In this document: piece after piece, positions 2,008 to 50,445 of the stretch
How positions within the stretch are numbered: position 1 is the first letter of the stretch
Layout of the letters: every line of letters starts with the position of its first letter
From: Anaerolineales bacterium
GTDB lineage: Bacteria; Chloroflexota; Anaerolineae; Anaerolineales; E44-bin32
Assembly: GCA_041554155.1 (NCBI GenBank)
Contig: JBFFMI010000002.1
Coordinates: 1-60,650, forward strand
DNA: 60,650 bases
Direction: 5' to 3'
Made by a program: the position numbers and the translations under genes
Notes under the pieces: model-generated
What the model saw: only the letters and a program-made list of their open reading frames with translations
Databases searched by the model: none
What the model was told of the DNA's origin: nothing

Positions 2008-2119
2008 AACCAGCACGGTTGAGCTCTTAGGCGTTGACAGAGATCAACCGAGTGTACCCCGGCGTGTTGAATGCCTTATTCACCAAAATTGTCAGTGTCG
2101 AAGCGTGGCTTTGGTTAGA

Positions 2120-5122: not shown

Positions 5123-5167
5123 AGGTTTTATCCAGAATCTGCATACCGCGTTCTGCCTCTCTCATCA

Positions 5168-8100
5168 TCATTCGATAACTGTGGAAGCTTTTTGCAGATT
5201 GGCGCGCAGAATTTCATCCATCTCACTGATCTTCTCAGCAAACTCCTTGCCTTCTGCTGCAGATATCCAGCGAAGCTGAAGGCGCTCCGGTGCAATTCCT
5301 TTACGCTCGTACTTTCGACTCCAATGCTTAAAACGCTTATCGGTGAGCCGATTGGCATAGTTGTAATGACAATCAGATCCCGTTTCCGTAAGCCGACAAC
5401 CTGTTATGAGTACCGCACCTGCGCTCCTTTCGAATGCGCGCTCGATAAAGGATTCCTCGAAGCGCGCAGAGCACATCGTGCGAATGATCCTGGCAGATGA
5501 TGGGTATTGACGTTTTTCAATCCCTGCAAGGTCGGCACCGGCATACGAGCACCAGTTGCAGGTGAAAACAAGGCACTTTTCAGCCGGTCGGTCTTCAAGC
5601 GCAGCATCCACCTGGGCTAATATTTGATCCTTTGTAAAATAGGGCATGTCGATGGCGGAGAAATTGCATTCCGCTGCGCATGTACCACATCCCATGCAAG
5701 CCGCCTCGTGGATCCGGACCACGCCCTCCTTCACAGGTCCCGTCGGTTCAATTGCGCCAAAGGGGCAAACTTTTACGCAGCGCATGCAACCGATACAAAG
5801 CTCTTCATCAACAATAGCTGTAAGAGGCTCCTTGGAGATCACCCCATGCGCCAGGAGTGCGCCGGCCTTACCGGCGGATGCCAATGCTTGCGCGATCGAC
5901 TCGCGCACATCCTTGGCTCCCTGGGCTGCACCTGCCAGGTAAATTCCCTGGCTTGCAGTCTCAGCAGGGCCCAGTTTTGGATGCAGCTCCATATAAAAAC
6001 CATCTTCGCTGCGCGATAGCTTGAGCTGCTCATCAAGGTTGTCGGTCGTTGGTTCTAGACCCACAACGAGGACGAGAAGATCTGTCGGGATCTGAATTCT
6101 TGCTCGCGAGAGTTCGTCCAATACCTCAAGACTCCCATCCTGATACTTGAGCACGGATTGGGGCGTTTGTTCAGAGTCGTAGCGGAAGAATTGCACCCCG
6201 GCCCGCGCCGCTTCTTCAAACAGTTCTTCAGCCTGCCGGCTATAGGTACGGATGTCCTTCGATACGACCCGGACAGATTTTCCAGTCTGACGGAGCCGTA
6301 GCGCCTGGTCGATCATGGATGTGCAACAATAGCGCGAACAACCCATGGTTCCCGCTCGTGAACCCACGCAAGAGATGAAGGTAATATGATCTGCATCCAG
6401 TTTGCGGGAAGTTAGCAAAGTTTCCAATTCAAGGTTCGTAATAACGGTCGGATCATCGCCATAACCAAATTCGTCTGGCTGATAGGTTTTAGATCCGGTT
6501 GCGACTACCAGCGCGCCTGCTTCGATATCCGCGCCATCGCTAAGCCTTGCCTTGAAACTCCCGACTATCCCACCGATCGTTTCCACCTCGGTTCCGAGGT
6601 GAAGTTTAACTTTCGCCTGTTTGAGTTCACGCTTTTTTGCTCGTAGCAAATCTTTGGCTTTGATCCCGGATGGCGACAGGACATCTAATTGCCGCAACAT
6701 ACCACCCAGTTCAGAATCTCGCTCTACTAGATCAGTCTTGAAGCCCTGGCGGGATAGTGCAACTGCTGCATTCATGCCCGCCACGCCACCACCGATGACC
6801 AGCACGCTTTGGTTAAGTGGAAGTTCACGGATTTCTAGTGGCTCAAGCCTGCGTGCTTTTTCGACCGCCATCGCCACCATATCCTTGGCTTTCGCAGTGG
6901 CTTCCTCTTTCTCGTGTTTATGAACCCAGGAATCCATATTCCGGATATTGGCCATCTCAAGCAGGAAAGGGTTTAGCCCAGCACGTTGCATTACGCCTCG
7001 AAATATGGACTCATGCGTCTTGGGAGAACAGGCTGCGATCACCACCCGGTTGATGCGATGTTCCCGAATCGAATCTTCAATTTCCTTCTGCGTATTCCCT
7101 GCGCAGGAGAACATCTGATCGGACACGTACATTACATCGGGTAGGGTCCTGGCATAGGTGACGAGTTCTTGAATATCGATAACCCCAGCGATATTCGAAC
7201 CACAATGACAGACAAAGACGCCAACGCGAGCAGTATCGATGTCTTCCATAGGTTCGACTTCAGGCGGCGCCTGCCATTGCCTTTCATCGACAAAGGCCAT
7301 TGCCAGGGCTGCCGCACCACTGCCTTCTGCTACACTGTCCGGTATGTCCTTTGGTCCACTCGCACATCCGGCAGCGAATATGCCCGGTCGAGTCGTTGAA
7401 ATTAACCCGGATATTTCTTCATGCGCCAACAGGAAACCATCTTGATCCAGCGCAATACCAAGCTTTTCCGCAAGCGTCTGTAACCCTTCCTGGGGCAATA
7501 CGGCATTGGCCAGTACAACCATGTCGTACGCATCTGTACGCCTTATGCCGACCTTTGTATCTTCATAGGAGACAGCCAGGGAACCATTCCCATTCGGAGT
7601 TATGCGCGCGGGACGCCCTCGAATATAGGTGGCGCCCTCTGCCTGTGTGCGCTCCTTGAAGCCGTCGAACCCCTTCCCATATGCGCGCAAATCCATATAC
7701 ATGATATGCACATCCTCAACACCATGATCTAGCGCTTGATAGGCGTGTTTGAGAGAGTACATACAGCAGAAGCGGGAGCAGTAGCGCGCGTAGCGCCGGT
7801 CACGGGAACCTACGCAAAGGACAAATAAGAGTTTGTGAGGATGCTCGCCATCGGATGGACGCAGGATCTCACCACCGGTCGGTCCAGCTGAATTGACCAA
7901 TCGCTCAAATTCGAGCGCAGTGAGAATATCTGGATGCTGGCCGTAACCCCACGTTGTTAAGTGGCGCGGATCGAAGCTGTCGTAGCCGACAGCAACGATC
8001 ACCGCGCCAACCCTTCGCGCCAGGATTTGCTCTTCAGGCTGCATAAAATCGATGGCGCCAGGAGGGCAAACATCGACGCAGCGATTACAGGGAATGTAAT

Positions 8101-8569
8101 TCGGGGGTTGGTTTAAACATTGCTCGATATCAATCAGGTATTCACCCGGTACGCTCTGCGGGATAGGAGTATAAATAGCCTTGCGAGCCGCCATCCCTGA
8201 ATCAAATTCATTGGGCACAACAATAGAGCAAACCGGTGTACAATCACCGCAGCGCGTACAAGCGTCAGTGACATACCGACCTCTTTGACGAATGGTTGCG
8301 GTGAAGTCACCGACATCCCCCTCTAATTTATCCAACTCTGCAAGAGAGATCACTTCGATGTTGGGGTGTAGATCGACTTCCGACATCTTGGGTGCCTCAA
8401 TGCAGATGGAACAATCCAGTGTGGGGAAGTTTTTATCGAGTACAGCCATGATCCCACCGATGGTTGGCTGTTTCTCAACGAGAACGACCTGTGCACCTGC
8501 ATGTGCAAGGTCAAGCGAAGCCTGGATGCCTGCTATGCCTCCACCCAAAACCAGTACTGAATCACTCAT
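5168..8569 (-). CDS. tandem HdrA-like flavoprotein fused to an MvhD/FlpD domain (heterodisulfide reductase subunit A-like)
   Basis: 1133 aa. Module 1: GGGIAGIQASLDLA, LDKNFPTLDCSIC, inserted Cys clusters, CVGSRDRRYARYCSRFCC. Module 2 (from about 6815): IGGGVAGMNAA, CVGSRAGTMGCSRYCC, 2x CxxCxxCxxxCP. The C-terminal FTCNWCSYAGADLAG...ITGC (about 5168-5580) is an MvhD-type domain. Confidence 0.85.
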   Translation of the reverse strand: MSDSVLVLGGGIAGIQASLDLAHAGAQVVLVEKQPTIGGIMAVLDKNFPTLDCSICIEAPKMSEVDLHPNIEVISLAELDKLEGDVGDFTATIRQRGRYVTDACTRCGDCTPVCSIVVPNEFDSGMAARKAIYTPIPQSVPGEYLIDIEQCLNQPPNYIPCNRCVDVCPPGAIDFMQPEEQILARRVGAVIVAVGYDSFDPRHLTTWGYGQHPDILTALEFERLVNSAGPTGGEILRPSDGEHPHKLLFVLCVGSRDRRYARYCSRFCCMYSLKHAYQALDHGVEDVHIMYMDLRAYGKGFDGFKERTQAEGATYIRGRPARITPNGNGSLAVSYEDTKVGIRRTDAYDMVVLANAVLPQEGLQTLAEKLGIALDQDGFLLAHEEISGLISTTRPGIFAAGCASGPKDIPDSVAEGSGAAALAMAFVDERQWQAPPEVEPMEDIDTARVGVFVCHCGSNIAGVIDIQELVTYARTLPDVMYVSDQMFSCAGNTQKEIEDSIREHRINRVVIAACSPKTHESIFRGVMQRAGLNPFLLEMANIRNMDSWVHKHEKEEATAKAKDMVAMAVEKARRLEPLEIRELPLNQSVLVIGGGVAGMNAAVALSRQGFKTDLVERDSELGGMLRQLDVLSPSGIKAKDLLRAKKRELKQAKVKLHLGTEVETIGGIVGSFKARLSDGADIEAGALVVATGSKTYQPDEFGYGDDPTVITNLELETLLTSRKLDADHITFISCVGSRAGTMGCSRYCCTSMIDQALRLRQTGKSVRVVSKDIRTYSRQAEELFEEAARAGVQFFRYDSEQTPQSVLKYQDGSLEVLDELSRARIQIPTDLLVLVVGLEPTTDNLDEQLKLSRSEDGFYMELHPKLGPAETASQGIYLAGAAQGAKDVRESIAQALASAGKAGALLAHGVISKEPLTAIVDEELCIGCMRCVKVCPFGAIEPTGPVKEGVVRIHEAACMGCGTCAAECNFSAIDMPYFTKDQILAQVDAALEDRPAEKCLVFTCNWCSYAGADLAGIEKRQYPSSARIIRTMCSARFEESFIERAFERSAGAVLITGCRLTETGSDCHYNYANRLTDKRFKHWSRKYERKGIAPERLQLRWISAAEGKEFAEKISEMDEILRANLQKASTVIE

Positions 8570-9102
8570 GAAGCTTGCTCCAGCTGGACTTGCTGATAAC
8601 CAAGTTCTAATGCCTCCAGATTCAGCTTAAGCACCGATTCTTTCACGGTTGTACGGATAGCCTGTTCAAGCGCCTCACGCTGCACGACCTTTGTGGAACC
8701 GCACAAAAAACCGAGCATAACCACGTTCGCCACGATCCTGCGACCGAGACCTTCGGCAAGATCGGTTGCTCGAATCGCGAGTGCGCGATCACCTTGCCGT
8801 GGCGATACCAATCCGCTATCGATCAAAACCGTAGCTTGTTCGACAGTCTGCACCCGGTAGCGATGGTATGCCTCTTGCGAGAGTGCCACGAAAATGTCTG
8901 CCTTCTGGACAAACGGGTAGGCGATACTGCGATCTGCCACGACGATATTGGAAGAGGAAGCGCCGCCTCTAGCCTCGGGACCGTAGGACTGGGTCATCAC
9001 AGCTTCCAAACCCTGGTAAAGGGCAAAGGCTTTTCCAAGCAGATACCCGGCGAGCACCACACCCTGCCCGCCAAATCCGGAGATGCGAATTTCATGTCGC
9101 AT
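8566..9102 (-). CDS. 2-oxoacid:ferredoxin oxidoreductase gamma subunit (set 1)
   Basis: 178 aa. Carries the [14 protein letters not shown] motif typical of Por/Kor gamma. The stop overlaps the HdrA-like start by 4 nt. Confidence 0.85.
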   Translation of the reverse strand: MRHEIRISGFGGQGVVLAGYLLGKAFALYQGLEAVMTQSYGPEARGGASSSNIVVADRSIAYPFVQKADIFVALSQEAYHRYRVQTVEQATVLIDSGLVSPRQGDRALAIRATDLAEGLGRRIVANVVMLGFLCGSTKVVQREALEQAIRTTVKESVLKLNLEALELGYQQVQLEQAS

Positions 9103-9928
9103 TCCCCAGCTCCAGTCTTACGGGTGCATAGGGTGGGGCTTCGCGATCCACGAACCGACCCACGAAGATGGGTTGATCACCATGCAGATCAATTCCGAGT
9201 TGATCCAGTGAGACTCCCTCGGCGATCTCACAGCGATCACGATAGAGCTGTAACTCGTCGATCGCGTCGGCCAATTGATTGGATCGTCCAAAACCAATGG
9301 GGCAAGGGACAAGCGCTTCGATGAAAGAAAATCCTGGTTTTTGAAAAGCATACAGGATGTCCTGGCGGATCTCGCGCACATGAATGGATGTCCAACGCGA
9401 TACAAAATTCGCACCAGCAGCCCAGAGCAAGTTAACGAGATTGAACGGCAATTCAGGACAACCATAGGGGGTGGTGGAAGTCCTCGCCCCTGGCGGAGTC
9501 GTCGGGCCGGATTGGCCACCCGTCATGCCGTAATTAAAATTGTTCGTACATATAACCGTCAGATCCACATTCCGACGTGCAGCGTGGATCAAGTGATTGC
9601 CGCCAATCGCGGCCAGATCGCCGTCCCCGCTGAAGACTGTGACGTGTAGATCGGGATTTGCTAACTTCAGACCAATGGCGAAAGGAATCGCACGCCCATG
9701 GGTCGTGTGATAGGAATCAATATTCATATAGCCGGCCACCCGGCCAGAGCACCCGATCCCGGAAACCACCACATGCCGATCCGCTGAATCGCCGAACATT
9801 TGGATCGCATGGGCGTAGCAGCGCATGACAACTCCGATGCCACAGCCCGGGCACCAAATATGTGGCATTCGATCAGCACGGATGAGAGTATCCAGCGGAT
9901 GAGTCTCTACCTGGATCGGAGCGACCAT
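9092..9928 (-). CDS. 2-oxoacid:ferredoxin oxidoreductase beta subunit (TPP-binding, set 1)
   Basis: 278 aa. WCPGCG near the N-terminus and a GDGD...NN..YGMTGGQ TPP motif. Confidence 0.88.
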   Translation of the reverse strand: MVAPIQVETHPLDTLIRADRMPHIWCPGCGIGVVMRCYAHAIQMFGDSADRHVVVSGIGCSGRVAGYMNIDSYHTTHGRAIPFAIGLKLANPDLHVTVFSGDGDLAAIGGNHLIHAARRNVDLTVICTNNFNYGMTGGQSGPTTPPGARTSTTPYGCPELPFNLVNLLWAAGANFVSRWTSIHVREIRQDILYAFQKPGFSFIEALVPCPIGFGRSNQLADAIDELQLYRDRCEIAEGVSLDQLGIDLHGDQPIFVGRFVDREAPPYAPVRLELGNAT

Positions 9929-9929
9929 A

Positions 9930-11078
9930 CTAGCTGACCTCTCGGATCGCAGCGAAAATTGGATCGGGCGACATCATTTCTCCACCCGCGTGGTTTACAC
10001 CAACAATTGGTTTCATAACATACCGCTGCACTTCTGTAATTAACTGACCTAAGTTCATCTCCGGGATGACGTAGGCTTTTGCCGTTTGATCAATCGTTTT
10101 CAACAGTGTGGCTGGAAACGGCCATATGGAGATTAACCGCAGAAATCCCACAGGGATCCCTTGCTCGCGAGCTTCTCGCACCGCCCTTAATGCAGATCTC
10201 GCTGTGCTTCCGAATGCAATCACCACAATCTCCGCATCATCCATGAAATGCGTTTCGGTGCGAATGATTTGCTCTGCATTGTCCTGAACTTTTTTCACCA
10301 GACGGGTTACCAGTTGATGATGTGTCTCGGGAGACATGTCTGGATAGCCCTGCTCGTCATGTGTCAATCCGGTGAAATGGAGTTTGTACCCCTCGCCAGC
10401 ATAGGCCATCGGCGGGACCAAATCATCCTGGTCAGCCTGAAAGGGTTGAAAAGCTTCTTTGGAAGAGCCATTCGGTCGCTTCCGCCCCCAACGGGTTATC
10501 CCCGAGGCATCAGGGATCACGACTCGCTCAACCATATGGCCCACGACTTCATCCGCCATTATAAGCACCGGGATACGAAATCGATCGGCGACATTAAAGG
10601 CATGCACAGTCAAGTTAAAAAGCTCCTGGGGCGACCATGGGGAGTAGGCTGCGATGCCATAATCCCCGTGAGAACCCCAACGCGCCTGCATAATGTCGGA
10701 TTGGCCTGGCAAAGTCGGCAGGCCTGTACTTGGGGAGCCTCGTTGCACATTCACGATGACACAGGGCAGCTCCATCATGACACCCAGACCCAGGTTTTCC
10801 ATCATCAAACTGAATCCAGGACCGGACGTGGCCGTCATCACCCTCGCTCCAGCAGCAGATGCTCCTAAGATGGAGGCCATACTGGCCATCTCATCCTCCA
10901 TCTGTATGAAAACACCACCGACTTCCGGCAAACGCAAGGCTAATCGCTCGGCGATCTCAGTTGAGGGTGTTATTGGATAGCCGCCGAAGAAGGTGCAGCC
11001 TGCCGCCAGGGCGCCTTCCGCGCAGGCGTGATCACCATGCATGAAATGATCCCCGGAAAGTACAGCCGGTCGACTCAT
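9930..11078 (-). CDS. 2-oxoacid:ferredoxin oxidoreductase alpha subunit (set 1)
   Basis: 382 aa. GYPITPSTEI and TSGPGFSLMMENLG motifs. Confidence 0.88.
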   Translation of the reverse strand: MSRPAVLSGDHFMHGDHACAEGALAAGCTFFGGYPITPSTEIAERLALRLPEVGGVFIQMEDEMASMASILGASAAGARVMTATSGPGFSLMMENLGLGVMMELPCVIVNVQRGSPSTGLPTLPGQSDIMQARWGSHGDYGIAAYSPWSPQELFNLTVHAFNVADRFRIPVLIMADEVVGHMVERVVIPDASGITRWGRKRPNGSSKEAFQPFQADQDDLVPPMAYAGEGYKLHFTGLTHDEQGYPDMSPETHHQLVTRLVKKVQDNAEQIIRTETHFMDDAEIVVIAFGSTARSALRAVREAREQGIPVGFLRLISIWPFPATLLKTIDQTAKAYVIPEMNLGQLITEVQRYVMKPIVGVNHAGGEMMSPDPIFAAIREVS

Positions 11079-11344
11079 CCCTGGCCCTCCAACGTATATA
11101 TCGCAAACTCAGGACAGATCATCGTGCAGAATTCGCAATGCACGCATGCGGTTTCCATACCAGGAATGATTTCTGGGAGGTGGTACCCCTTTTCATTTGT
11201 GATCTCGGAAGACCGCAGCACACCGCGAGGGCAGAGCTCGACGCATAGCTTACATCCTTTGCATCGAGCGGGAATAAGGTAAACCTGCCCAAAAGGAACA
11301 GGCAGATCGTCGAGGTTGATCGGTTTACGGGCGAAGACCTTCAT
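11075..11344 (-). CDS. 2-oxoacid:ferredoxin oxidoreductase delta subunit (2x[4Fe-4S] ferredoxin, set 1)
   Basis: 89 aa. CKGCKLCVELCP and CVHCEFCTMICP motifs. 4-nt overlap with the alpha subunit. Confidence 0.85.
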   Translation of the reverse strand: MKVFARKPINLDDLPVPFGQVYLIPARCKGCKLCVELCPRGVLRSSEITNEKGYHLPEIIPGMETACVHCEFCTMICPEFAIYTLEGQG

Positions 11345-11626
11345 TGTCGCCTGTCACAAACAAAAGTCTAGCCTTGAACAGGGTTCGCCAATCCAAGCAG
11401 GTACGCTCAAAGCTGACCTTGATCGGATCAGCCAAAGCGTAGGGGCACCCTCCGCTCGCCACAAGTACTAACTGTCATCTCGCGCTTGGTAAATCTTCGT
11501 TTTATTGCGATTATTATGATTAATCGGGTAATACAGGGGCGGGCACGCCATGGAGCGGGTATCGCTTGTGCACTTGCTAGCTTCTAGGGCGTTGCCGAAT
11601 CGCTGAGAAATGCGGACGAACATCCA

Positions 11627-11655
11627 TTGAGCCATTTTGCCTACCACCCTATAAT
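11627..11655 (+). promoter_or_regulatory. candidate sigma70-type promoter for the ccs-like operon
   Basis: TTGAGC (11627-11632), 17-nt spacer, TATAAT (11650-11655). This would give a 5' UTR of about 170 nt. Confidence 0.35.
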
Positions 11656-11834
11656 CGGGTAAGTGCCGGAGCGCAGCATGCCATGAATCGAACATTCAAT
11701 GAAGGTGCTCTCAACTGCTGCCCATTTCTCATAATCCATCCCCCCCCTACGCCCTGTATACCTGCACGGCTGAAAAAAGTATGCAATATAAACACACTGT
11801 CGAACCCTCTAGATCCACGCGCTAAAGGAATTTG

Positions 11835-13379
11835 ATGGCCAAATTGCACGAATACCAGGGCAAGCAACTTCTCGAGGCTGGCAAGATACCCATCCCACCC
11901 GGCGGTCCAGCAACATCACCCCAAGAAGCTGCTGATCTGGCGCGTGAGTGTAATGGCCCTGTGGTTGTAAAGGGTCAGATCTGGCTAACCAGTCGGGCGA
12001 GCCTGGGTTTGATCCGATTCGCTGAAACGCCCGAGCAGGCTGCGGAGGCCGCAGAATCAATGCTGGGACGCAGCATTAAGGGCTTCGCGGTGGATACCGT
12101 GCTTGTCGAAGCCCGGCTTGATATTGAACGAGAATTTTATGCGGGGATCATCATCGATGATCAAATCCAGTCGCCAGTGCTGATCTTCAGCGCCATCGGA
12201 GGGAGCGGGATCGAGGAACTCGCTGAAAAGCACCCCGAGTCCATCGTCCGTACCCCCATTGATGTCGTGCGCGGTTTCTACGATTATCAGGCTCGAGAGC
12301 TCGTCCGTCAGACCGGCATTCAAGGCAAATTGCTACTTAAAATCGGGGGGCTTCTGCCACGCTTGGTCGATGTCGCTCGAGAATATGATGCTCGCGCAGC
12401 TGAGATCAATCCCCTGGTTCTCACTGTCGATGGCAAACTAATCGCTGCAGATTGCCGCATCACGATTGATGATTACGCCACCTATCGACATCCTGAATTG
12501 GGAATCGAGGTCGCCCGAGAATTTGATCGACCGCCGACGGATCTTGAAAAAATTGCCTGGCAGGTCGAAAAAAATGATTACCGGGGAACCTTCTATTTCA
12601 TCCAGATGCGCGAGCAGTTTAAACATGGAGACAAGGTGATTGGATTCCATGGTGCGGGTGGTGGTGGATCGATGATGAGCATGGATGCCATCCTGAACCG
12701 TGGGTACTCGCTCGCAAATTTCGTCGATACGAGCGGAAATCCACCGGCTTCAAAAGTCTATCGAGCTGCAAGGATCATCATGGCACAAGGTCCGATCGAT
12801 GGCTACTTCGCTTCTGGCTCGGGGGTTGCTTCCCAGGAACAGTTTCATTCTGCCAGGGGACTGGTTAAAGCCTTTATGGAAGCACCCCTGATGGTACCCG
12901 CTGTAATCCGCTTGGGGGGCAACGCCGAGGAGCAGGCGATTGACATCCTCAAGAGAGCCGAGGACGTCATACCTGCACCAGTTCAAGCCTTTGGAAAGGA
13001 TGACAATCCAGCATACTGCGCCGAACGCTTGGATCTCTTGATCCAATCCTACGCTAAGCCCACATCAGCCGCCGAACCTAAGATCCCGCCACCTCCAGCT
13101 GCTGCTTATTCGTTCGAAACAGTGACTGGTGGGTGCGTCTCGTTCGATCACACCCTCTGCCTTGATTGTGAGAGCAACATCTGTGTGGAGCGTTGCGTTC
13201 CCCAAATCATAAAACTCGAGAATGATGTACCCGTTCTCAATATCACACATGACGAAGCCATGAAAGGCGGTTGCACGGAATGCCTCGCCTGCCAGATAGA
13301 TTGCTATTTTGAAGGCAACCAGGGTGGCTTTGTCGATCTTCCGATACCCGGTTTAGATGGCTATGCGCAAGGCATTTAG
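11835..13379 (+). CDS. SucC-like ATP-grasp CoA ligase beta-type subunit with C-terminal di-cluster-like Cys domain; candidate citryl-CoA synthetase large subunit
   Basis: KLHEYQGKQLL N-terminus, EINPL, GAGGGGSMMSMDAI and ANFVDTSG segments as in SucC. ATG at 11835 follows AAAGGA (the track started at the TTG at 11832). The last ~80 aa carry CLDCESNICVERC and CTECLACQIDC. Confidence 0.7.
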   Translation: MAKLHEYQGKQLLEAGKIPIPPGGPATSPQEAADLARECNGPVVVKGQIWLTSRASLGLIRFAETPEQAAEAAESMLGRSIKGFAVDTVLVEARLDIEREFYAGIIIDDQIQSPVLIFSAIGGSGIEELAEKHPESIVRTPIDVVRGFYDYQARELVRQTGIQGKLLLKIGGLLPRLVDVAREYDARAAEINPLVLTVDGKLIAADCRITIDDYATYRHPELGIEVAREFDRPPTDLEKIAWQVEKNDYRGTFYFIQMREQFKHGDKVIGFHGAGGGGSMMSMDAILNRGYSLANFVDTSGNPPASKVYRAARIIMAQGPIDGYFASGSGVASQEQFHSARGLVKAFMEAPLMVPAVIRLGGNAEEQAIDILKRAEDVIPAPVQAFGKDDNPAYCAERLDLLIQSYAKPTSAAEPKIPPPPAAAYSFETVTGGCVSFDHTLCLDCESNICVERCVPQIIKLENDVPVLNITHDEAMKGGCTECLACQIDCYFEGNQGGFVDLPIPGLDGYAQGI

Positions 13380-13394
13380 GAGACCCGTTTTACG

Positions 13395-14306
13395 ATGTCA
13401 ATTTTGATCGATGAGACCAAGCGCGTACTGATACAGGGTATCACCGGTCGGGAGGGTCAAGCACGCGCCCGCCTGATGCAGGGCTATGGCACCCAAATCG
13501 TCGCCGGTGTTACGCCCGGAAAAGGCGGTCTCGAAGTACTTGGCGTTCCTGTATTCGATAGTGTTCGTGAGGCCCGGGATAACTGTGGTCCTCTAGATAT
13601 CAGCGTGCTGTTCATCCCCGCGCCACTGGTAAAAAGCGCAGCTCTGGAAGCAATCGAGGCCGGGATCCAATTGCTCGTATTAATCCCCGATCGAGTTCCT
13701 ATCTATGATGTGCTCGTCATTGCCCAGGCCGCCAAAACCTATGGCGCCCGGTTTATCGGACCAAATACTCTCGGAGTCTTGTCCCCTGAGAAAGCCGTCC
13801 TCGGGATGATCGGCGGCCGTGCTGCATCGGCGCGGTCCTGGTTCATCCCTGGTCCTGTGGGCATAAGCTCTCGCTCCGGTGGCATCACCTCCGCCATGGC
13901 TTATTATCTAGCTCAGAAGGGGATTGGCGCTACGACTCTCGTGCACGTCGGCGGTGATGTCGTGGTGGGCCTGCCCCACCCGGAAGTTGCGCTGCTCTTC
14001 GAGCACGATCCCGAGACAAAAGCCATGGTCTTGTTCGGTGAGATCGGCGGTTCACAGGAAGAACGCCTGGCAGACCTGGTAGAGGCAGGCGAGGTGACCA
14101 AACCCATTGTGGCGTTCATTGGAGGTAAAGCGGCCAAAAGCGGGACACGTTTCAGCCATGCAGGGGCGATCGTGGAAGGTGGCCGCGGGACGCATGAAGG
14201 CAAGGTGACTCGTTTGCGCCAGGTCGGCGTAACCGTCGTGGAAGAATTTGGCGACCTGCCATCCGCCACCCAAAACGTCTTGAAGGAGCATGGGATCCCA
14301 ACATGA
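13395..14306 (+). CDS. SucD-like CoA ligase alpha-type subunit; candidate citryl-CoA synthetase small subunit
   Basis: 303 aa. Contains IQGITGREG, SRSGG, GEIGGSQEE and SHAGAIV (the phosphohistidine loop). Confidence 0.75.
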   Translation: MSILIDETKRVLIQGITGREGQARARLMQGYGTQIVAGVTPGKGGLEVLGVPVFDSVREARDNCGPLDISVLFIPAPLVKSAALEAIEAGIQLLVLIPDRVPIYDVLVIAQAAKTYGARFIGPNTLGVLSPEKAVLGMIGGRAASARSWFIPGPVGISSRSGGITSAMAYYLAQKGIGATTLVHVGGDVVVGLPHPEVALLFEHDPETKAMVLFGEIGGSQEERLADLVEAGEVTKPIVAFIGGKAAKSGTRFSHAGAIVEGGRGTHEGKVTRLRQVGVTVVEEFGDLPSATQNVLKEHGIPT

Positions 14307-15091
14307 GCCAAGAAAAATGGTCGACGAGCATTACAGCAGTCCAGCCCAATGAAGTTCGCCTAAGGGGTTACCGTATCGATGATTTGATGGGAGAAACATC
14401 CTTCAGCGATGGAATTTATCTCGCGCTCATCGGGGAACTCCCAACACCCACTGTTTCGAAGATGATCGAGGCGATCCTGATCTCGTCGATCGATCATGGG
14501 CCCACTCCCCCATCGGCACTTGCGGCACGTACGGCTGCTTCCACTGGTGCACCGCTGAATGCTGCGGTCGCCTGTGGATTGCTTTCCATTAACCGCTTCC
14601 ACGGCGGTGCGATCGAGGGTTGCATGCAGATGCTTGCGTCGGCGATCGAAACGCAAACAGAGGATGGTTCAGACATCGAGCAGATCGCGAACCAGACCAT
14701 CGACGCTTACCAGGAGAGCAAACAACGCCTGCCTGGCCTTGGTCATAGGCTGCACAACGACGATCCCCGGGCTGCCAAATTATTTGCTCTTGCCACAGAA
14801 ACCGGGATTCGTGGACCTGCGATCGAGCTTCTTCAAGCACTGCGATCAGGGCTTGCAACCAGGGGGGTTGACCTTCCGATCAATGTTGACGGAGCGATCG
14901 CTGCGATCCTTGTCGATCTCAAGGTCCCTTCGCCCCTGGCCAACGCATTTTTCCTTATCTCCCGCTTGCCGGGATTGGTTGCGCATGTGTACGAGGAACA
15001 GACAGAACAACGCCCCATGCGGCCTATCGATCCCAGTGCACATGTGTATCATGGACCCAACCCTCGATCGATTGATGTGAAAAAGGCCTAG
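14303..15091 (+). CDS. citrate synthase-like short protein; candidate citryl-CoA lyase
   Basis: 262 aa. FHGGA, GLGHRLHNDDPRA (compare the GHRVY..DPR of citrate synthases) and NVDG segments. 4-nt overlap with the upstream gene. Confidence 0.7.
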   Translation: MSQEKWSTSITAVQPNEVRLRGYRIDDLMGETSFSDGIYLALIGELPTPTVSKMIEAILISSIDHGPTPPSALAARTAASTGAPLNAAVACGLLSINRFHGGAIEGCMQMLASAIETQTEDGSDIEQIANQTIDAYQESKQRLPGLGHRLHNDDPRAAKLFALATETGIRGPAIELLQALRSGLATRGVDLPINVDGAIAAILVDLKVPSPLANAFFLISRLPGLVAHVYEEQTEQRPMRPIDPSAHVYHGPNPRSIDVKKA

Positions 15092-15100
15092 GAGATCCAT

Positions 15101-15649
15101 ATGACAAAAACACTTGAAGGGCTCATCCCCGAAATCGAGCTCATCAGCGAAAATACGTTGCGTGAACAGGTCGTTGCAGTCTGGGAAGACGCCCTTCACC
15201 AGGCTGGATGGGAATTAGAAGATCTGGCTTCCATGCCCTACACCCTCCTTGTTGAAAATGTGACCATCAGTTTCCCCGAGCACGTGAGTGTTGTCGCACG
15301 CCTTTGTCTGGCGATCGAATCGGTCCTACGCGAGTCCTACGCAGATCGCTATGAGATCAACCGGGACACGCTGCTAGCGGGGGCTCTCCTCGCAGATGTG
15401 GGTAAGTTGCTTGAATTTAAGAAATCCGGGGATGGGTATGCTTGGGCTAGCATGTATCGATATTTACGGCACCCTTTTACTGGGGTTGGGCTATGCTTCA
15501 AGCACGGCCTCCCCGAGGCGGTCATGCATATTGTCGCCACGCATTCCTGGGAAGGCGAGAAATTCACCCGGCTGCCCGAATCAATCATCTTCCATCACGC
15601 TGACTTTATTGATTTTGACCTGACCAAGTTTGAAGCGAAACAAGGTTAA
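15101..15649 (+). CDS. HD-domain-like protein (degenerate HD dyad)
   Basis: 182 aa. EH...LLADVGK...H...H...D spacing resembles the HD superfamily, but the HD dyad reads AD. Confidence 0.5.
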
Positions 15650-15657
15650 GATCAGCT

Positions 15658-16914
15658 ATGGGTCAAACATTCGCTGAGAAAGCGCTCGCCCGGCACGCTG
15701 GTCTGACAGAAGCAAGGCCAGGGACGATCGTGCAGGTTAGGCCAAATACCGCCTTATCACACGATAATACGGCTGCGATCGCCGACATCTTTCACGAGAT
15801 GGGTGGAAAGCATGTCTTCGACCCTGAAATGCATGCCATAATTCTCGACCACGCGACGCCGGCGCCCACCACCAAGCATGCGGAGAACCACCGTCAGATT
15901 CGAGAGTTCGTCCAAACGCAGGGTATCCCCCATTTTTATGACATTGGACGCGGAATCTGCCATCAGGTACTCGTCGAGGAGGGCCTGGCACTTCCGGGCG
16001 AACTTGTACTGGGCTCCGATTCGCATACACCACACGCGGGCGTTATGGGTGCCTTCGCCGCTGGAATCGGGCGCAGTGAAATGGCGTCCGTCTGGGCTCT
16101 TGGCAGCCTTTGGCTCAGGGTGCCCGAGAGCATCAAGATTACCCTGCATGGCACGTTCCCGCCCTGGGTTACAACCAAGGATTTAGCCTTGAAGATTATC
16201 GGCCAACTCGGTTCTGATGGGGCGCTCTATCAGTCAGTTGAGTGGCATGGTGAAGCGCTGGAAAGGTTATCGCTCAGCGAACGCGCGACGCTTCCCAACA
16301 TGATGGCTGAAATGGGAGCGAAAAACAGCTACCTATGGCCGGACGCTACCGTTGAAGAGTATCTCGAAGGCCGGGCGAAACGCGAATACGCACCGATTTA
16401 CCCTGACAGGGATGCTACATACACCAGCCAGATCAGCTTCGATCTAGGCACCCTTACCCCACAAGTCGCATGCCCGCACAACGTTGATAACGTCCATGCG
16501 CTTGAAAGCCTGGTTGGTATTCCTATTCAACAAGCTTTTCTCGGAACATGCACCAATGGTCGGCTTGAGGATCTGATCGCAGCTGCGGATATCCTGCGAG
16601 GGCGAACGCTTGCAACCGGAACCCGCATGATTGTGATTCCCGCGTCCTCTGAAGTTTACCTAGCTGCCGATGAGATGGGATTACTGGCTGATTTCGTCCG
16701 TGCAGGAGCGGTTGTGGAGAGTCCCGGATGTGGTCCCTGTATGGGTAACCATATGGGCGCTCCAGCGCAAGGTGAAGTCTCCATAAGCACGGCAAATCGC
16801 AATTTTCGGGGTCGTATGGGCACAAAGGATAGCGAAATCTACCTGGCCAATCCGCATATCGTGGCAGCCTCCGCAGTTGCGGGGAAAATCGTTTCTCCGG
16901 AAAGTTTGAAGTGA
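15658..16914 (+). CDS. aconitase-family dehydratase large subunit (LeuC/HacA type)
   Basis: 418 aa. Contains SHDNT, GSDSHT, CTNGR and GCGPCMG motifs, which include the Fe-S ligands. Confidence 0.85.
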
Positions 16915-17426
16915 GTGTGTTTATGGAAGCGATAGAAGGTCGGATATGGAAGTATGGTGACAACATTAATACCGATGTGATCTTCCCCGGGAAATATACC
17001 TACACGATAACCGACCCGGAGCAGATGCGCCGACATGCACTGGAGGATTTAGACCCGGCATTTTCCGAAGGCGTGCAAGAAGGTGATGTCATCATCGCCG
17101 GGACCAACTGGGGCTGTGGTTCCTCCCGAGAGCAGGCCGTCACATGCTTAAAGGCAGCGGGTGTCGGCGCAATCATCGCCAAAAGCTATGCAAGAATTTA
17201 CTATCGTAATTGTCTTAACGCTGCCCTACCTGCGCTCACCTGCCCAGAATTGATCGATCAGGTCGCTCATGGCGATAGCATCCACATTGATTTGGAGCAG
17301 GGTCAGATCCTGCACGCGGGGGAAACCTTCGACTTTCCCGCGCTGCCTGAAGCGCTTCAATCGCTATTTGCCGCTGGGGGATTGATACCGTATACCCGCC
17401 AACGACTTGAAGAAACGAAGCCATGA
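16911..17426 (+). CDS. aconitase-family dehydratase small subunit (LeuD/HacB type)
   Basis: 171 aa. [12 protein letters not shown] and GCGSSREQA motifs. GTG at 16911 overlaps the large-subunit stop. An alternative ATG lies at 16923. Confidence 0.85.
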
Positions 17427-17594
17427 TGGATTGTCGCGTGGAGCGTTGAGCCGTCCATAGATGCGCAGCCCTGGTCCTGACAACCATCGAGACCAGGGCC
17501 GTATATCGATGCATGCACACAAGCATCACCAAAATGAAAACAATGGGTGTTTTACCTCCCTTGAGTCGACACAACAAGCCTTAGGAGAGCAAGT

Positions 17595-18713
17595 ATGGCG
17601 AATTATCGTATAGCATGGATGCCCGGAGATGGCGTTGGGGTTGAGGTGATGGATGCCACACGCCTCGTCCTTGATGCATTACATTTTGACGCAGATTACA
17701 TTCCCGCCGACATAGGTTGGGAATTCTGGTGCAAGGAGGGCGAAGCGTTACCCGAGAGGACCCTCACACTCTTAGAGGATTGCTCTTGCGGCCTTTTCGG
17801 AGCGATCACCTCCAAACCCAAGGAAGAAGCCGAGTTGGAGCTCGCTCCTGAACTCCAGGGTAAGGGGCTTACCTACAGAAGTCCGATCGTCCGCTTGCGC
17901 CAGCATTTCGATCTCTACACCAACCTGCGACCCTGCAAGGCGTACAGCGGCAACCCCCTGAATTATCGAGAGGGGATTGATCTTGTCGTCTTTAGGGAGA
18001 ACACCGAGGGGTTGTACAGTGGTGTCGAGTTCCATCCAATGCCTCAAACACTGCGCGATTCCATCAGCGCGCACAATGCTGCCATGAATCGCTTTGATCA
18101 TGTTGAGAATAATGACATGGCCGTCAGCTTGCGAGTCATCACACGACAAGGTGCACGTCGCATTGTGCGCCAGGCTTTTGAGTATGCCAAGCGGTTTAAC
18201 TACCCCTCGGTAACTGTTGTTGAGAAGCCCAATGTTCTGCGTGAGACCAGCGGGTTGATGATGAGAGAGGCGCGTGGCGTTGCAAAGTCCTATCCAGAGA
18301 TTGAGTTATGGGAGACCAACATCGACGCGCAGGCCATGTGGCTGCTGAAAAATCCCGAAAATTATGGCGTGCTCGTCACAAGCAACATGTTCGGGGATAT
18401 CCTGTCAGACCTGGCAGCGCAATTGATCGGGGGACTGGGATTCGCCTCGAGCGGAAATATCGGTGATTCCTTTGCGGTTTTTGAACCCACCCATGGGTCG
18501 GCGCCGAAATACGCTGGCCAAAACAAAGTCAACCCTATCGCCATGATGTTAGCCGCAAAACTGATGCTCGATTGGCTGGGTGAGCAGCATGTAGCCTCAC
18601 GTCTTGAAAAGGCTCTCGCTGCAGTGATAGCGGAAGGGACTGTGCGTACCTATGACATGGGCGGGGATGATTCGACGCTAGACATGGCACAAGCCGTAAT
18701 TACCAATCTCTAA
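17595..18713 (+). CDS. isocitrate/homoisocitrate/isopropylmalate dehydrogenase family protein
   Basis: 372 aa. GDGVGVEV, YRSPIVRLRQHFDLYTNLRP, RENTEGLYSG and NMFGDILSD motifs. Confidence 0.85.
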   Translation: MANYRIAWMPGDGVGVEVMDATRLVLDALHFDADYIPADIGWEFWCKEGEALPERTLTLLEDCSCGLFGAITSKPKEEAELELAPELQGKGLTYRSPIVRLRQHFDLYTNLRPCKAYSGNPLNYREGIDLVVFRENTEGLYSGVEFHPMPQTLRDSISAHNAAMNRFDHVENNDMAVSLRVITRQGARRIVRQAFEYAKRFNYPSVTVVEKPNVLRETSGLMMREARGVAKSYPEIELWETNIDAQAMWLLKNPENYGVLVTSNMFGDILSDLAAQLIGGLGFASSGNIGDSFAVFEPTHGSAPKYAGQNKVNPIAMMLAAKLMLDWLGEQHVASRLEKALAAVIAEGTVRTYDMGGDDSTLDMAQAVITNL

Positions 18714-18738
18714 CACCAGCTTTAGGAGGATGCGATCG

Positions 18739-20109
18739 ATGAGTTCGCTGAGCCGGAGAATGGCTGAATTTGCACTCGGATTAAATTATGCGGACATACC
18801 ACAAACAGCCAGGGAAGAGGCTAAACGCTTCCTGCTCGATAGCCTTGGCTGCGCGCTTGCTGCAGTACAGAACGATGATATGCAGGCGATGTATCGCTTC
18901 ACACAAAAGTTAGGTGGGGTTGAACGGGCGACAATTATTGGAGTCGATTGGCGTACAAATGCGCCCAATGCGGCCTTGATGAATGGGTTGCTCATCCGAG
19001 CTCTGGATTACAACGATATTTACTGGGTTCAAGATCCCAGTCACCCATCTGACCTTTTGGGAACTGCGTTGGCAGCAGCTGAGGTGAATCGCTGCAGCGG
19101 CGAAGAGCTTATTACCGCAATCGTGCTTGCCTATGAACTGGAAATGCGCTGGTGTCATGCTGCGCATCCTGGTATTCGTGAAGTGGGTTGGCATCATGCC
19201 ACACTCACGCAATTCGTCAGCCCACTGGTGGCAGGAATACTTTACCGCCTTGATCTGGATCAAATGGTCGCTGCGATAGGGATCAGCGGCAGCAGCCATT
19301 TTACCCTTGGCGGGGTCGTTGCAGGGCATCTTACCAATATGAAGAATACCGCAGATCCCCTCGCTGCCCAGGCGGGTGTCTATGCAGCGCTGATGGCACG
19401 AGAAGGCTATAGCGGGCCAGTCGAAGTCCTGGAAGGCAAGGAAGGTTTATTTGAAGTGTTGAGCAATGTGCGCTGGGATGCCAATGAGCTTTTTAAAGGT
19501 CTTGGTGACGAGTTCCTGATCACGAACTGTTCCTATAAAGCATTCCCAACCGAAGCGCTCACCCACCAACCGATCAGTGCAGTGCTGCACCTACGGGAGA
19601 AGAACCAGATTGATCCCGATATGATCGAAGAGATACTGGTTGAAACTACCACGCGTGGGGCTGACATTCTCTCTGATCCCACCAAATACCAGCCTGATAC
19701 CAAGGAGACCGCTGACCACAGCCTGCCCTATGTCGTAGCGGCTGCAGCTGCAGATGGGCATGTCCTACCAGAGTCTTTTGACGAACAGAAACTATTCGAT
19801 CCGAAGATCCGTGCCCTGCTGCCCAAGATCAAGGTTGTGGCCGACAAGGAAATTGATAGCCTCTTTCCGAAGGTAAAACGGGCTCGCGTGAGGATAAGGA
19901 CAACCGACGGTCAGAATTACCAGCATCAGACCGATATCGCCAAAGGTGATCCGGCTGACCCCATGAGCGATGAAGACTTGGAGGCGAAATTCTTTGCTAA
20001 TGGCCGCAAAGTCCTCCCGGAAAGCCGCCTTGAATCCATCATACAGGCAACGAAAGAGCTAGAGACCGTGGCAGAAATCGAAGACTATATGGCTTTGCTC
20101 ACCAGTTAA
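18739..20109 (+). CDS. MmgE/PrpD family dehydratase (2-methylcitrate dehydratase-like)
   Basis: About 456 aa with family-typical N-terminal and C-terminal lobes (LLDSLGCALAA, YKAFPTE). The ATG at 18739 was preferred because it lies 9 nt after AGGAGG; the track start at 18730 abuts the SD. Confidence 0.82.
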   Translation: MSSLSRRMAEFALGLNYADIPQTAREEAKRFLLDSLGCALAAVQNDDMQAMYRFTQKLGGVERATIIGVDWRTNAPNAALMNGLLIRALDYNDIYWVQDPSHPSDLLGTALAAAEVNRCSGEELITAIVLAYELEMRWCHAAHPGIREVGWHHATLTQFVSPLVAGILYRLDLDQMVAAIGISGSSHFTLGGVVAGHLTNMKNTADPLAAQAGVYAALMAREGYSGPVEVLEGKEGLFEVLSNVRWDANELFKGLGDEFLITNCSYKAFPTEALTHQPISAVLHLREKNQIDPDMIEEILVETTTRGADILSDPTKYQPDTKETADHSLPYVVAAAAADGHVLPESFDEQKLFDPKIRALLPKIKVVADKEIDSLFPKVKRARVRIRTTDGQNYQHQTDIAKGDPADPMSDEDLEAKFFANGRKVLPESRLESIIQATKELETVAEIEDYMALLTS

Positions 20110-20131
20110 TGGTGCAGCTTTCCGTCCATTT

Positions 20132-20168
20132 AAAACCCGGTTGGTGAGCAGAACCCAACCGGGTTTTT
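20132..20168. terminator. bidirectional intrinsic terminator
   Basis: 10-bp stem ACCCGGTTGG/CCAACCGGGT with a 10-nt loop, an A-run upstream and T-run 20164-20168. It lies between convergent genes. Confidence 0.7.
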
Positions 20169-20223
20169 CATTTGTACCAGTGCGGGAGCGCATTGCTATG
20201 CGCATGTTCAAAAGGTAGGCCAC

Positions 20224-21405
20224 TCACCCAAAGATCCCGGATGGAGGCTCTCCCGTTTCCTCATCTTCGAGATCTGGAATCTCCGGTTCGAGAATTTTTG
20301 TATCCACTTGTTGTGTACGGGGGGATTCGGCAGGCGCAGATGCTCCCTTTGAACGCGACCTTCGGCTGATCCACCAAAGCAATAGGGCAAGCGCGATAAT
20401 TACCACGCTCTGCAGCCATAGGGGTCGTAATCCGGCGGTATATAAAGCCTCCAGAATATCGCGCACCAGGTCTTGAAAAATCGTTCCTGGAGCGACGCTC
20501 CCTGCCCAAGTCGATACGAGATCCTCCCGACCAACCCCTAATAACATCGCTAAAAAGAATGTGCCCACCCCACCCAGTAAGAGCGGAAGGCCCCACCAAC
20601 GTCCGAAGTCCCGCCAGTGTCGAATGGCAAACGCCATAATCAAGCCCAACAACGAGAGCGGCAGCATCCAACCCCAGAGTGTAATCGCCCGGTAGAACCT
20701 CAACTGCTCTTTTAGCGCAAGCATATCTTCAGGAGCAGCATCAGGCTCAATCAACGGGATCGTACCCGGGAGTAAGCGTACTTGTTCCTCAAAACCAATA
20801 GAGGCCAGATCTACCACGCGGCTTCTCATTGGTTCGGGGGGTTCACACAATTCCTGGGGCAGTACTCCACGCTCGAAAAACGATTGCTGCATCCTATCAA
20901 CTTGATCCGGCTTGCAGCTTGGCCAAGAATCGACGATGACATCCACAAAGGTGGTGATCCCACCACGGAGGAGCTTTGCCTTCAGGGGTGAAACCTCAAG
21001 AGCTAGTTGCGGGTAGGCTCGATCGTCATCAAGCCAATGGAAGAAATCCAGCAAGAGTTGTGCAAATTGGTTTTCCAGCCAGTCCTGCGGTAGTAAAGCC
21101 CTAAAAATCTCATCCCTCTCACCAGGCGATAGGTATTCAAAATACCTTCCAATCTCATCCTCACCATCGGATATCAAGCCAAAAAACTCACGGCTCAATT
21201 GATTTTCCTGGACAGCGTCTTCAAGCACAGGCGAAGATAAAATACTTTGCCGGAGCACTTCCGTAAGAATTGCAGGTCGAAACAACACCCGGCCAAAGGA
21301 GCGGGCTCCCAGCGCTAGCGGAATCGACAGGATAAGCACAATGGCCATGAGTACGGCAATTGCTTTCAAACCTGTCTCGAAGCACCCACGTCGATCCTGG
21401 CTCAT
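20224..21405 (-). CDS. hypothetical membrane protein (paralog of 34930-36072)
   Basis: 393 aa. N-terminal TM helix, a large acidic middle domain and C-terminal TM helices with RHWRDFGRWWGLPLLLGG. The start overlaps the EamA stop by 4 nt. Confidence 0.6.
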   Translation of the reverse strand: MSQDRRGCFETGLKAIAVLMAIVLILSIPLALGARSFGRVLFRPAILTEVLRQSILSSPVLEDAVQENQLSREFFGLISDGEDEIGRYFEYLSPGERDEIFRALLPQDWLENQFAQLLLDFFHWLDDDRAYPQLALEVSPLKAKLLRGGITTFVDVIVDSWPSCKPDQVDRMQQSFFERGVLPQELCEPPEPMRSRVVDLASIGFEEQVRLLPGTIPLIEPDAAPEDMLALKEQLRFYRAITLWGWMLPLSLLGLIMAFAIRHWRDFGRWWGLPLLLGGVGTFFLAMLLGVGREDLVSTWAGSVAPGTIFQDLVRDILEALYTAGLRPLWLQSVVIIALALLLWWISRRSRSKGASAPAESPRTQQVDTKILEPEIPDLEDEETGEPPSGIFG

Positions 21406-23461: not shown

Positions 23462-23462
23462 C

Positions 23463-25295: not shown

Positions 25296-25308
25296 GCACT
25301 ACTCTCCA

Positions 25309-50440: not shown

Positions 50441-50445
50441 GCTTC

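Follow-up and report, generated by a model that had tools for sequence, protein, structure and literature searches.

Introduction

Citrate is cleaved in Hydrogenobacter thermophilus by three separate proteins, namely the SucC-like and SucD-like subunits CcsA and CcsB of citryl-CoA synthetase (CCS; structure 6HXQ) and Ccl, a citryl-CoA lyase (CCL) of about 260 amino acids (aa; 6HXP). In ATP-citrate lyase (ACL; AclB/AclA of Chlorobium limicola, 6HXJ, and human ACLY) the alpha subunit is fused to the lyase. Together with succinyl-CoA synthetase (SCS; SucCD), these ligases form one superfamily. In this work, a trio of separate genes laid out like the Hydrogenobacter set and termed A, B and C was analyzed in an uncultured Anaerolineales bacterium from sediment. 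The genes lie at 11835-15091 of a 60,650-nt stretch of its genome (assembly GCA_041554155.1, contig JBFFMI010000002.1, positions 1 to 60,650), which is referred to as the window. We read the trio, with somewhat better than even confidence, as a reversible ATP-coupled system that interconverts citrate with acetyl-CoA and oxaloacetate and whose ligase belongs to a new lineage bearing an iron-sulfur (Fe-S) module.

Published free-energy changes for the known enzymes are small (CCS -5.9, CCL -2.1 and ACL -8.0 kJ/mol; PMC13147460), so the overall reaction lies near equilibrium (about -8 kJ/mol). ACL is run in both directions by Desulfobacter, as cited in bioRxiv 10.1101/831230. It gives a precedent for ATP-yielding citrate synthesis in an anaerobe whose 2-oxoglutarate oxidoreductase depends on ferredoxin. 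Desulfobacter, however, is a sulfate reducer with a fused ACL, whereas the trio would be a two-step system of a different clade that may run either way.

Anaerolineae are among the most abundant bacteria of anoxic sediments and digesters. If about 590 or more species-level genomes carry a system that is missed by the KEGG entries for ccsA/ccsB and aclAB, carbon-fixation surveys and metabolic models are incomplete. With this ligase, CCS and ACL would also be joined by a third lineage, a point of relevance to the evolution that has been proposed to lead from SCS through CCS/CCL and ACL to citrate synthase. A full-text literature search returned no paper analysing these genes in Anaerolineae. Citryl-CoA lyase genes were noted in passing among Chloroflexota metagenome-assembled genomes (MAGs) of the Guaymas Basin (PMC10681998).

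Gene organization and the lyase C

The three adjacent or overlapping plus-strand genes of the original prediction were confirmed as open reading frames (ORFs) and by their Pfam content (ATP-grasp_2 in A, CoA_binding and Ligase_CoA in B, Citrate_synt in C; E-values 1e-14 to 1e-49). A (11835-13379, plus strand) codes for a beta-type subunit of 514 aa, similar to SucC, CcsA and AclB, of an ADP-forming acid-CoA ligase, B (13395-14306, plus strand) for an alpha-type SucD-like subunit of 303 aa with CoA-binding and phosphohistidine domains, and C (14303-15091, plus strand) for a citryl-CoA lyase-type protein of 262 aa with a short citrate-synthase fold. A and B are separated by 15 nt, whereas B and C, in different frames, share the 4 nt ATGA. 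An AGGAG resembling a Shine-Dalgarno sequence lies ahead of B and of the next gene. The ORF of A opens at 11832 with a TTG immediately before the ATG at 11835. Because homologues begin with MARLHEYQ, 11835 is the likely start, and a protein search returned a 514-aa protein (P0001) identical to A. Residue numbers of A are counted from the TTG (515 aa).

The identity of C is the clearest of the three, and its earlier description as a Ccl-like lyase was borne out. In a search of the PDB the top solved match was Hydrogenobacter thermophilus Ccl (6hxp; 179.5 bits, 43% identity), compared with 75.7 bits for the CCL modules of ACL and 62.2 bits for citrate synthases. C passed the cut-offs of three NCBIfam citryl-CoA lyase subfamilies (score/cut-off: NF004866 246.5/245, NF004869 243.3/212, NF004868 193.4/193); the cut-offs of the two NCBIfam equivalog models that it hit best were not reached. 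The Pfam Citrate_synt match aligned residues 47-241 of C with profile positions 162-356 of 357 and thus covered the citrate-synthase catalytic region only. The motifs FHGGA (residues 99-103) and GLGHRLHNDDPRA (starting at residue 145) were present as described before. AclA H491 and D543 (6HXJ) have been used as a catalytic test in a recent survey (PMC13147460). Counted along the alignment to Chlorobium AclA, these residues correspond to H148 and D196 of C, so the catalytic His/Asp pair of the ACL lyase module is present and the catalytic residues of Ccl are all kept. Residues H65, H100, H148, R156, D196, F217, R221 and R240 were conserved in at least 97% of 61 orthologues, and H65, H100, R156, F217, R221 and R240 lie within the citrate-synthase motifs DHG, HGGA, DPR and FxxxSR, from which the Arg residues were mapped onto what we take to be their citrate-synthase numbering. 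All oxaloacetate-binding Arg residues of C are retained, and the keto-acid product is therefore argued to be oxaloacetate. From these sequence matches C can with good confidence be regarded as a Ccl-type lyase with intact catalytic residues, predicted to cleave (3S)-citryl-CoA to acetyl-CoA and oxaloacetate.

The ligase subunits A and B

A matched Pfam ATP-grasp_2 (5.5e-49) and, above the cut-off of 26.8 bits, Citrate_bind (28.6-31.7 bits), a feature in common with ACL; Ligase_CoA was not matched in A even at an E-value of 10. The AlphaFold2 (AF2) model of A had a mean predicted local distance difference test (pLDDT) score of 87.6. B matched CoA_binding (2e-23) and Ligase_CoA (4.6e-14), and its SHAGA loop, also described earlier, was located at residues 254-258 with the predicted phosphohistidine H255 in T-R-F-S-H-A-G-A-I, a loop that was invariant in 73 orthologues. 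The two-subunit architecture and the phosphohistidine loop are shared with SucCD. A fused ACL was ruled out, as B and C are separate ORFs of 303 and 262 aa.

Pairwise similarity was rejected as a test for the placement of A and B: by this measure even CcsA would side with Thermus SucC (37.6%) rather than with Chlorobium AclB (34%). The family of A was searched for among 1.84 billion representative proteins and the acid-site loops were tabulated. Placement was taken from a neighbour-joining distance tree of 109 full-length sequences with 200 bootstraps, for which the references were rebuilt from PDB alignments. In this tree A fell into a clade of its own with 37 members (84%). Hydrogenobacter CcsA was placed outside it and formed with AclB another clade (89%), to which the A-type clade is sister. 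The A-type sequences, the ACL/CCS sequences and a third, uncharacterised clade together stood apart from SucC, including the Thermus and E. coli proteins (89%).

The loops of A are in keeping with this arrangement. Three derived characters are common to A-type proteins, CcsA and AclB and absent from SucC, namely the insertion RPPTxxE...D[YH]RG in the linker, the loop GGGGS and the loop GNPP, which reads GNPP(A) in A and CcsA. The SucC loops NGAGLxM, D-x-G-G-G-A and N-I-F-G-G-I are replaced in A by HGAGGGGS, DTSGNPPA and SGSGVASQ, and the replacement loops are invariant across the A-type family (HGAGGGGS, DTSGNPPASKVY and GVASQEQxHxARG). At the same time, A and B differ from the Hydrogenobacter ligase in that CcsA is without an Fe-S module and CcsB has 353 aa, whereas B is of SucD size and scores higher with SucD. 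A and B thus represent a third type within the superfamily, neither ordinary succinyl-CoA synthetase nor orthologues of CcsAB. The original prediction had taken the pair for a candidate CcsAB; what stands of this is the separation of A from ordinary SucC, while the separate clade, the citrate contacts described below and the greater closeness of B to SucD speak against CcsAB proper. A malate thiokinase acting with malyl-CoA lyase was rejected as well, with A scoring 174 bits against the MtkA cut-off of 604 and C keeping all oxaloacetate-binding residues.

In the structure of CcsA (6HXQ chain B) citrate is contacted by eight residues, F270, G296, G297, A327, N328, N329, T330 and R363 (bioRxiv 10.1101/2022.10.25.513756). 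The corresponding residues of A are A275, S301, G302, A333, S334, Q335, E336 and L361. Only two of the eight are kept, the equivalents of G297 and A327; the A-N-N-T loop has become A-S-Q-E, and in place of Arg363 A has, as does SucC, a Leu after the conserved Arg of the V-x-R-L-x-G motif. Since the citrate contacts of CcsA and likewise of ACL are largely replaced, the acid used by A/B is not readable from known contact residues. The invariant G-V-A-S of A (residues 331-334, nt ~12822-12833) was the sole well-conserved stretch with a pLDDT below 50. Ordering of this loop upon substrate binding only would fit the model. In ACLY the loop that matches the acid-site loop of A becomes ordered only once citrate is bound.

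The loss of these contacts weighs against citrate as the acid, and it does not stand alone: the placement of A rests on a simple distance tree of 109 sequences, the A-type clade holds no characterised enzyme, and in the PDB search A scored higher with Thermus SucC (220 bits) than with Hydrogenobacter CcsA (121 bits), as did B with archaeal and Thermus SucD (271 and 247 bits) compared with CcsB (173 bits). A 2-oxoacid:ferredoxin oxidoreductase (OFOR) beside a SucCD-like pair is moreover the classic arrangement for a true succinyl-CoA synthetase. From this it could be argued that A/B is a real but divergent succinyl-CoA synthetase beside a 2-oxoglutarate OFOR, with C working on its own as a lyase or a small citrate synthase. 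Electrons of the OFOR might then be accepted or relayed by the ferredoxin-like domain of A. The Leu at the Arg363 position is shared with SucC, a fold search with A put SCS beta first, an OFOR is divergently adjacent to A in the window and in the closest relatives, and the 60-kb window contained no second SucCD-type pair. However, the excess similarity of A to SucC is confined to the ATP-grasp half (43%), the acid-binding half being 34% identical to CcsA and 33% to SucC, and both subunits fell below the curated NCBIfam cut-offs (A with SucC, 242.3 against 375.55/370; B with SucD, 284.5/283.9 against 336/353.2). The replacement of all three SucC acid-site loops by invariant ones and the separation of the A-type clade from SucC likewise argue for another substrate. 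Further, the universal partner of A-type genes is a C-C lyase, Ccl-like or CitE-like, and not an OFOR, and in the class Bathyarchaeia canonical SucC occurs as well as A-type proteins. A divergent succinyl-CoA synthetase is thus considered improbable, and the proposed citrate system is followed below.

The iron-sulfur module of A

Unlike SucC, CcsA and ACL, A carries about 90 extra C-terminal residues that form a putative 2x[4Fe-4S]-type module (13107-13343, plus strand; residues ~426-504) with two Cys motifs of the CX2CX2-4CX3C kind, C443-x2-C446-x4-C451-x3-C455 and C481-x2-C484-x2-C487-x3-C491. All eight Cys residues were kept in at least 97% of 82 orthologues. Pfam Fer4_9 matched the module weakly (E 0.012, below the cut-off), and a PDB sequence search with the domain gave no match. 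The domain was predicted with a pLDDT of about 92 in the full-length AF2 model and of 51.7 when predicted alone. In the fold search with A, the structural neighbours SCS beta, CCS large subunit and ACL left it uncovered.

In short-form relatives of A (~410-425 aa) a homologous module is encoded by a separate ORF of 84-92 aa between the beta-type and alpha-type genes. Such an ORF was found in all four readable short-form loci (L082 of Bathyarchaeia, 4979-5257; L085, 3239-3517; L086, 1444-1698; L087, at a contig end, 3845-4048). As the module is fused in some lineages and a separate gene in others, there is good evidence that it is a genuine component of the enzyme. In the ORF of L085 the second motif lacks its first Cys and may thus be a 3-Cys site.

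The ligase and lyase reactions both proceed without electrons. The module may gate the enzyme in response to redox state or oxygen, offer ferredoxin or the OFOR a place to dock, or serve the structure alone; a part in redox sensing or docking is proposed. Whether the direction of the cycle is under redox control is a question that the module makes testable. A broader proposal, that A-type proteins are a widespread new class of the superfamily whose integral Fe-S subunit or domain makes the interconversion of citrate with acetyl-CoA and oxaloacetate respond to how reduced the ferredoxin pool is, is regarded as rather unlikely. If it were true, gating or OFOR docking would set which way the tricarboxylic acid (TCA) cycle runs in sediment Anaerolineae, some Bathyarchaeia and others, and surveys based on CCS/ACL marker genes would miss A-type genes. 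No described precedent for an Fe-S module in the SCS/CCS/ACL superfamily was found in the literature search. Neither this extension nor the acid-binding loops unlike those of CcsA had been mentioned in the original prediction, and what appears to be new here is a Ccl-type lyase joined to an Fe-S-bearing lineage of the superfamily.

Distribution and gene order

Patterns specific for A-type proteins were scanned against a one-genome-per-species collection. At least 600 stretches matched, of which 592 were confirmed; taxonomy was taken from the best 80 of them, relatives' loci were readable with flanks of up to 10 kb, and only loci with room on the contig entered the synteny counts. The best 80 loci were almost all from Anaerolineae (Anaerolineales, Aggregatilineales, Ardenticatenia and Thermoflexia), and a few were MAGs labelled Calditrichota, Marinimicrobia, Sumerlaeota and others. 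B followed A in 71 of 72 informative loci and the order A-B-C was kept in 61 of 65, the exceptions being L012, L017, L071 and one contig end. Downstream, most loci contained an HD-type protein, one or two aconitase-family pairs, an isocitrate dehydrogenase (IDH)-family gene and a PrpD-family gene. An OFOR upstream of A was kept in the closest relatives (L001, L004, L007, L018-L020 and L033). In the complete 3.4-Mb genome CP070708.1 and other closest relatives, the OFOR, HdrA2-like, CCG-domain and EtfAB genes lie upstream in the same order as in the window; in CP070708.1 (L001) the HdrA2/CCG/Etf region is at 46-6577.

Several variations of the gene order were observed. In CP070708.1 a gene for a 759-aa Tricorn/PD40 beta-propeller protein lies between A and B (L001, 11571-13850), and an MFS transporter gene separates the IDH-family gene from that of the small aconitase-family subunit. 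Two consecutive aconitase-family pairs follow the HD gene in L027, L032, L037, L043, L044, L047, L049, L058-L060, L063, L068, L074 and L080, all of one Anaerolineae sub-group; one of the two pairs is 33-41% and the other 53-58% identical to the pair of the window. In L071, from a Sumerlaeota-labelled MAG, the place of the lyase after A-B is taken by a 4HBT-family thioesterase (3303-3725).

More distant members differ in their partners. The long-form locus L083 contains a Ccl-like gene, PrpD, PrpF, an aconitase-family pair, an ABC transporter and a GntR regulator. In the archaeal or short-form loci with enough sequence, L082 and L085, a CitE/HpcH-type lyase stands in place of the citrate-synthase-fold lyase, an arrangement that recalls MtkAB with malyl-CoA lyase or CitE. 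It differs from those pairs in that the lyase of the window has a citrate-synthase fold and the CitE-like partner matched the citrate lyase beta model best, with 247 bits that fall short of the cut-off, and the models of the itaconate-pathway lyase and of malyl-CoA lyase less well. The citryl thioester is a known type of substrate in both lyase families, the citrate-synthase-fold and the CitE-like enzymes. The association of one ligase family with two unrelated lyase families, both of which include enzymes that cleave citryl thioesters, is the best indirect argument for a citryl-CoA intermediate.

A further, uncharacterised SucC-like clade with the loops GGGGASL/ELGGNPP/SNTQVD was noted in L084 (7123-10113). 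Its partner there is a CitE/HpcH-type lyase, and genes for a GntR regulator and for a TRAP transporter accompany the two. From its gene content this set looks like another catabolic module of an acid thiokinase and a lyase.

Proposed reaction

In the proposed mechanism, ATP bound in the ATP-grasp domain of A would phosphorylate His255 of B, with which A would form a complex. The phosphoryl group would activate the acid, most likely citrate, held in the second domain of A, and CoA bound on B would attack the activated acid to give citryl-CoA. C would then cleave citryl-CoA in a retro-Claisen reaction to acetyl-CoA and oxaloacetate with His148/Asp196 as catalytic pair. The overall reaction would be that of ACL. 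Every step would be reversible, and in the opposite direction citrate would be made from acetyl-CoA and oxaloacetate with the thioester energy conserved as ATP. It is the association with C and the neighbouring genes that point to citrate as the acid. Together with these neighbours the locus would span the route from acetyl-CoA and oxaloacetate via citrate, isocitrate and 2-oxoglutarate to succinyl-CoA in either direction. If this is true, the carriers could run part of the TCA cycle backwards, or gain ATP while making citrate.

Genes flanking the trio and direction of the pathway

All neighbours named in the original prediction, i.e. three OFOR loci, mdh, an IDH-family gene and an aconitase-family dehydratase, were recovered in the window. 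The trio probably lies in one operon with aconitase-like and IDH-like genes, unlike the Hydrogenobacter system. Directly 3' of C, an HD/HDIG-like protein of 182 aa is encoded (15101-15649, plus strand). It had no Pfam match and scored 26.3 with the NCBIfam HDIG model (cut-off 27.6); its His/Asp residues are invariant, and it follows C in 43 related loci. The next two genes code for the large (15658-16914, plus strand) and small (16911-17426, plus strand) subunits of an aconitase-family hydro-lyase, assigned by NCBIfam and syntenic in most loci. The large subunit scored 530.9 with the aconitase/IPM dehydratase large-subunit family (cut-off 385) and 508.5 with hacA_fam (cut-off 385.7), the small subunit 173 with LeuD/DmdB (cut-off 109). 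They are followed by a beta-decarboxylating dehydrogenase of the isocitrate/homoisocitrate type (17595-18713, plus strand; Pfam Iso_dh 2.7e-84), which in the PDB search scored about equally with NAD-IDH (6ltf, 243 bits) and Thermus homoisocitrate dehydrogenase (239 bits) and was below every NCBIfam equivalog cut-off. The last gene of the plus-strand run codes for a divergent MmgE/PrpD-family protein (18730-20109, plus strand; syntenic in 20 loci).

These downstream genes bear on the identity of the acid. The hydro-lyase and the dehydrogenase are homoaconitase-like and homoisocitrate-dehydrogenase-like, matching those models best, and are not specific for C6 acids, and the PrpD-family gene that closes the operon hints at a substituted citrate. 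The trio might accordingly act on a citrate analogue such as 2-methylcitrate (from propionyl-CoA and oxaloacetate, with a PrpD-family dehydratase), homocitrate (from 2-oxoglutarate) or an imported hydroxy-tricarboxylate. The acid-binding loops of A, unlike those of CcsA/ACL and also unlike those of SucC, would agree with such a substrate, as would the recurrence of a PrpD-family gene with A-type modules in L083 (there with PrpF, the ABC transporter and GntR) and L085. The PrpD-family protein is, however, far from true PrpD (98 bits against model cut-offs of 458-950). 2-Methylisocitrate is a tertiary alcohol and hence no substrate for the dehydrogenase of the operon, and no methylisocitrate lyase is present at the locus. 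The catalytic set of citrate synthase is common to methylcitrate synthases, but C keeps every oxaloacetate-binding Arg and has a citryl-CoA lyase as its nearest characterised relative, which argues against 2-oxoglutarate as the keto acid. Enzymes of the Thermus homoisocitrate dehydrogenase type are reported by Miyazaki et al. (2003) to accept isocitrate as well, which is counted against an analogue. On the whole, an analogue as the substrate is given a small probability only, and citrate remains the favoured acid.

Divergently from A, a four-subunit OFOR is encoded on the minus strand (delta 11075-11344, alpha 9930-11078, beta 9092-9928, gamma 8566-9102). Its alpha subunit scored 549 with the NCBIfam model (cut-off 411), and 2-oxoglutarate-specific models were the top matches of beta and delta, below their cut-offs; the enzyme at 8566-11344 is probably a 2-oxoglutarate OFOR. 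Directly behind it, on the same strand, are genes for an HdrA2-like flavoprotein (5168-8569; 1133 aa with an MvhD-like end; NCBIfam HdrA2 1170, cut-off 1100), a CCG-domain/TfrB-like Fe-S protein (3956-5122; TfrB 5e-41), EtfA (2913-3959) and EtfB (2120-3010), both Etf subunits being recognized by NCBIfam. These genes may encode a flavin-based electron-bifurcating unit that belongs with the OFOR, and this unit may be functionally linked to the trio. Paralogous HdrA2/CCG/Etf sets were observed upstream of A in L027, L049, L058, L059 and L068.

Formation of citrate in a branched or oxidative cycle of mostly heterotrophic anaerobes and its cleavage in a reductive TCA (rTCA)-type cycle or in citrate catabolism are about equally likely for the proposed system. 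The Hdr/Etf unit beside the OFOR and the transporter-linked contexts found elsewhere fit with cleavage. Anaerolineae are mostly fermentative heterotrophs, and the wide occurrence of the genes, mostly within this class, favours a housekeeping role.

The same question of direction separates the proposed system from its special case, a full autotrophic rTCA cycle in Anaerolineae with A/B/C as the citrate-cleaving step. The window provides a citrate-cleavage candidate, aconitase-family and IDH-family genes, the OFOR and an adjoining Hdr/Etf unit as a possible source of low-potential ferredoxin, and in addition mdh (28806-29729) and two further OFORs, namely a two-gene type with a 610-aa fused alpha/gamma and a 349-aa beta subunit (22412-25295, minus strand) and a third one at 49886-52424. 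Identical genes would, however, serve an oxidative or branched cycle, neither fumarate reductase nor fumarase was found in the 60-kb window, and about 590 or more matches in the one-genome-per-species collection, nearly all of the best 80 from Anaerolineae, speak for housekeeping. A large carbon-fixation survey with the Hydrogenobacter CCS/CCL proteins as markers reported 10 rTCA2 MAGs, and the taxa that it named for the rTCA cycle included neither Anaerolineae nor any other Chloroflexota (PMC9802188). The full autotrophic cycle is hence judged quite unlikely. The original prediction of an rTCA module in a lineage that is not a classical rTCA one was right about the lineage and holds insofar as the trio is conserved among genes for the interconversion of citrate, isocitrate, 2-oxoglutarate and succinyl-CoA; an ATP-conserving, citrate-forming branch fits these genes equally well.

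Two further observations concern the other OFORs. A GntR/FCD-type regulator gene adjoins the second OFOR (22412-26031, minus strand). A few kb from the third one, the genes at 44310-47396 (minus strand) code for a NuoB-like protein, a NuoC/NuoD-like fusion of 582 aa and a 2x[4Fe-4S] protein; they may belong to a module resembling complex I or an energy-converting hydrogenase.

Transcription signals and sequencing runs

The plus-strand run is framed by a promoter-like site at 11627-11655 (plus strand), which matches 10 of 12 consensus positions some 180 nt upstream of A, and by a hairpin of terminator type at 20150-20167 (plus strand), 40 nt past the PrpD-family gene, where the next gene is on the opposite strand; the number of promoter- and terminator-like matches in the region was not above chance. 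Several marine runs with an RNA label (metatranscriptomes) contained contigs that match the window at 99% identity or more over 8000-20500, from the OFOR genes through the run from A to the PrpD-family gene. Some pieces from these runs span the B/C and C/HD junctions and both aconitase-family genes; their depth was low and even, and DNA carry-over is possible. These pieces hint that the genes from A to the PrpD-family gene may be transcribed as a unit. The locus was also found in DNA runs from sediment, estuary and soil.

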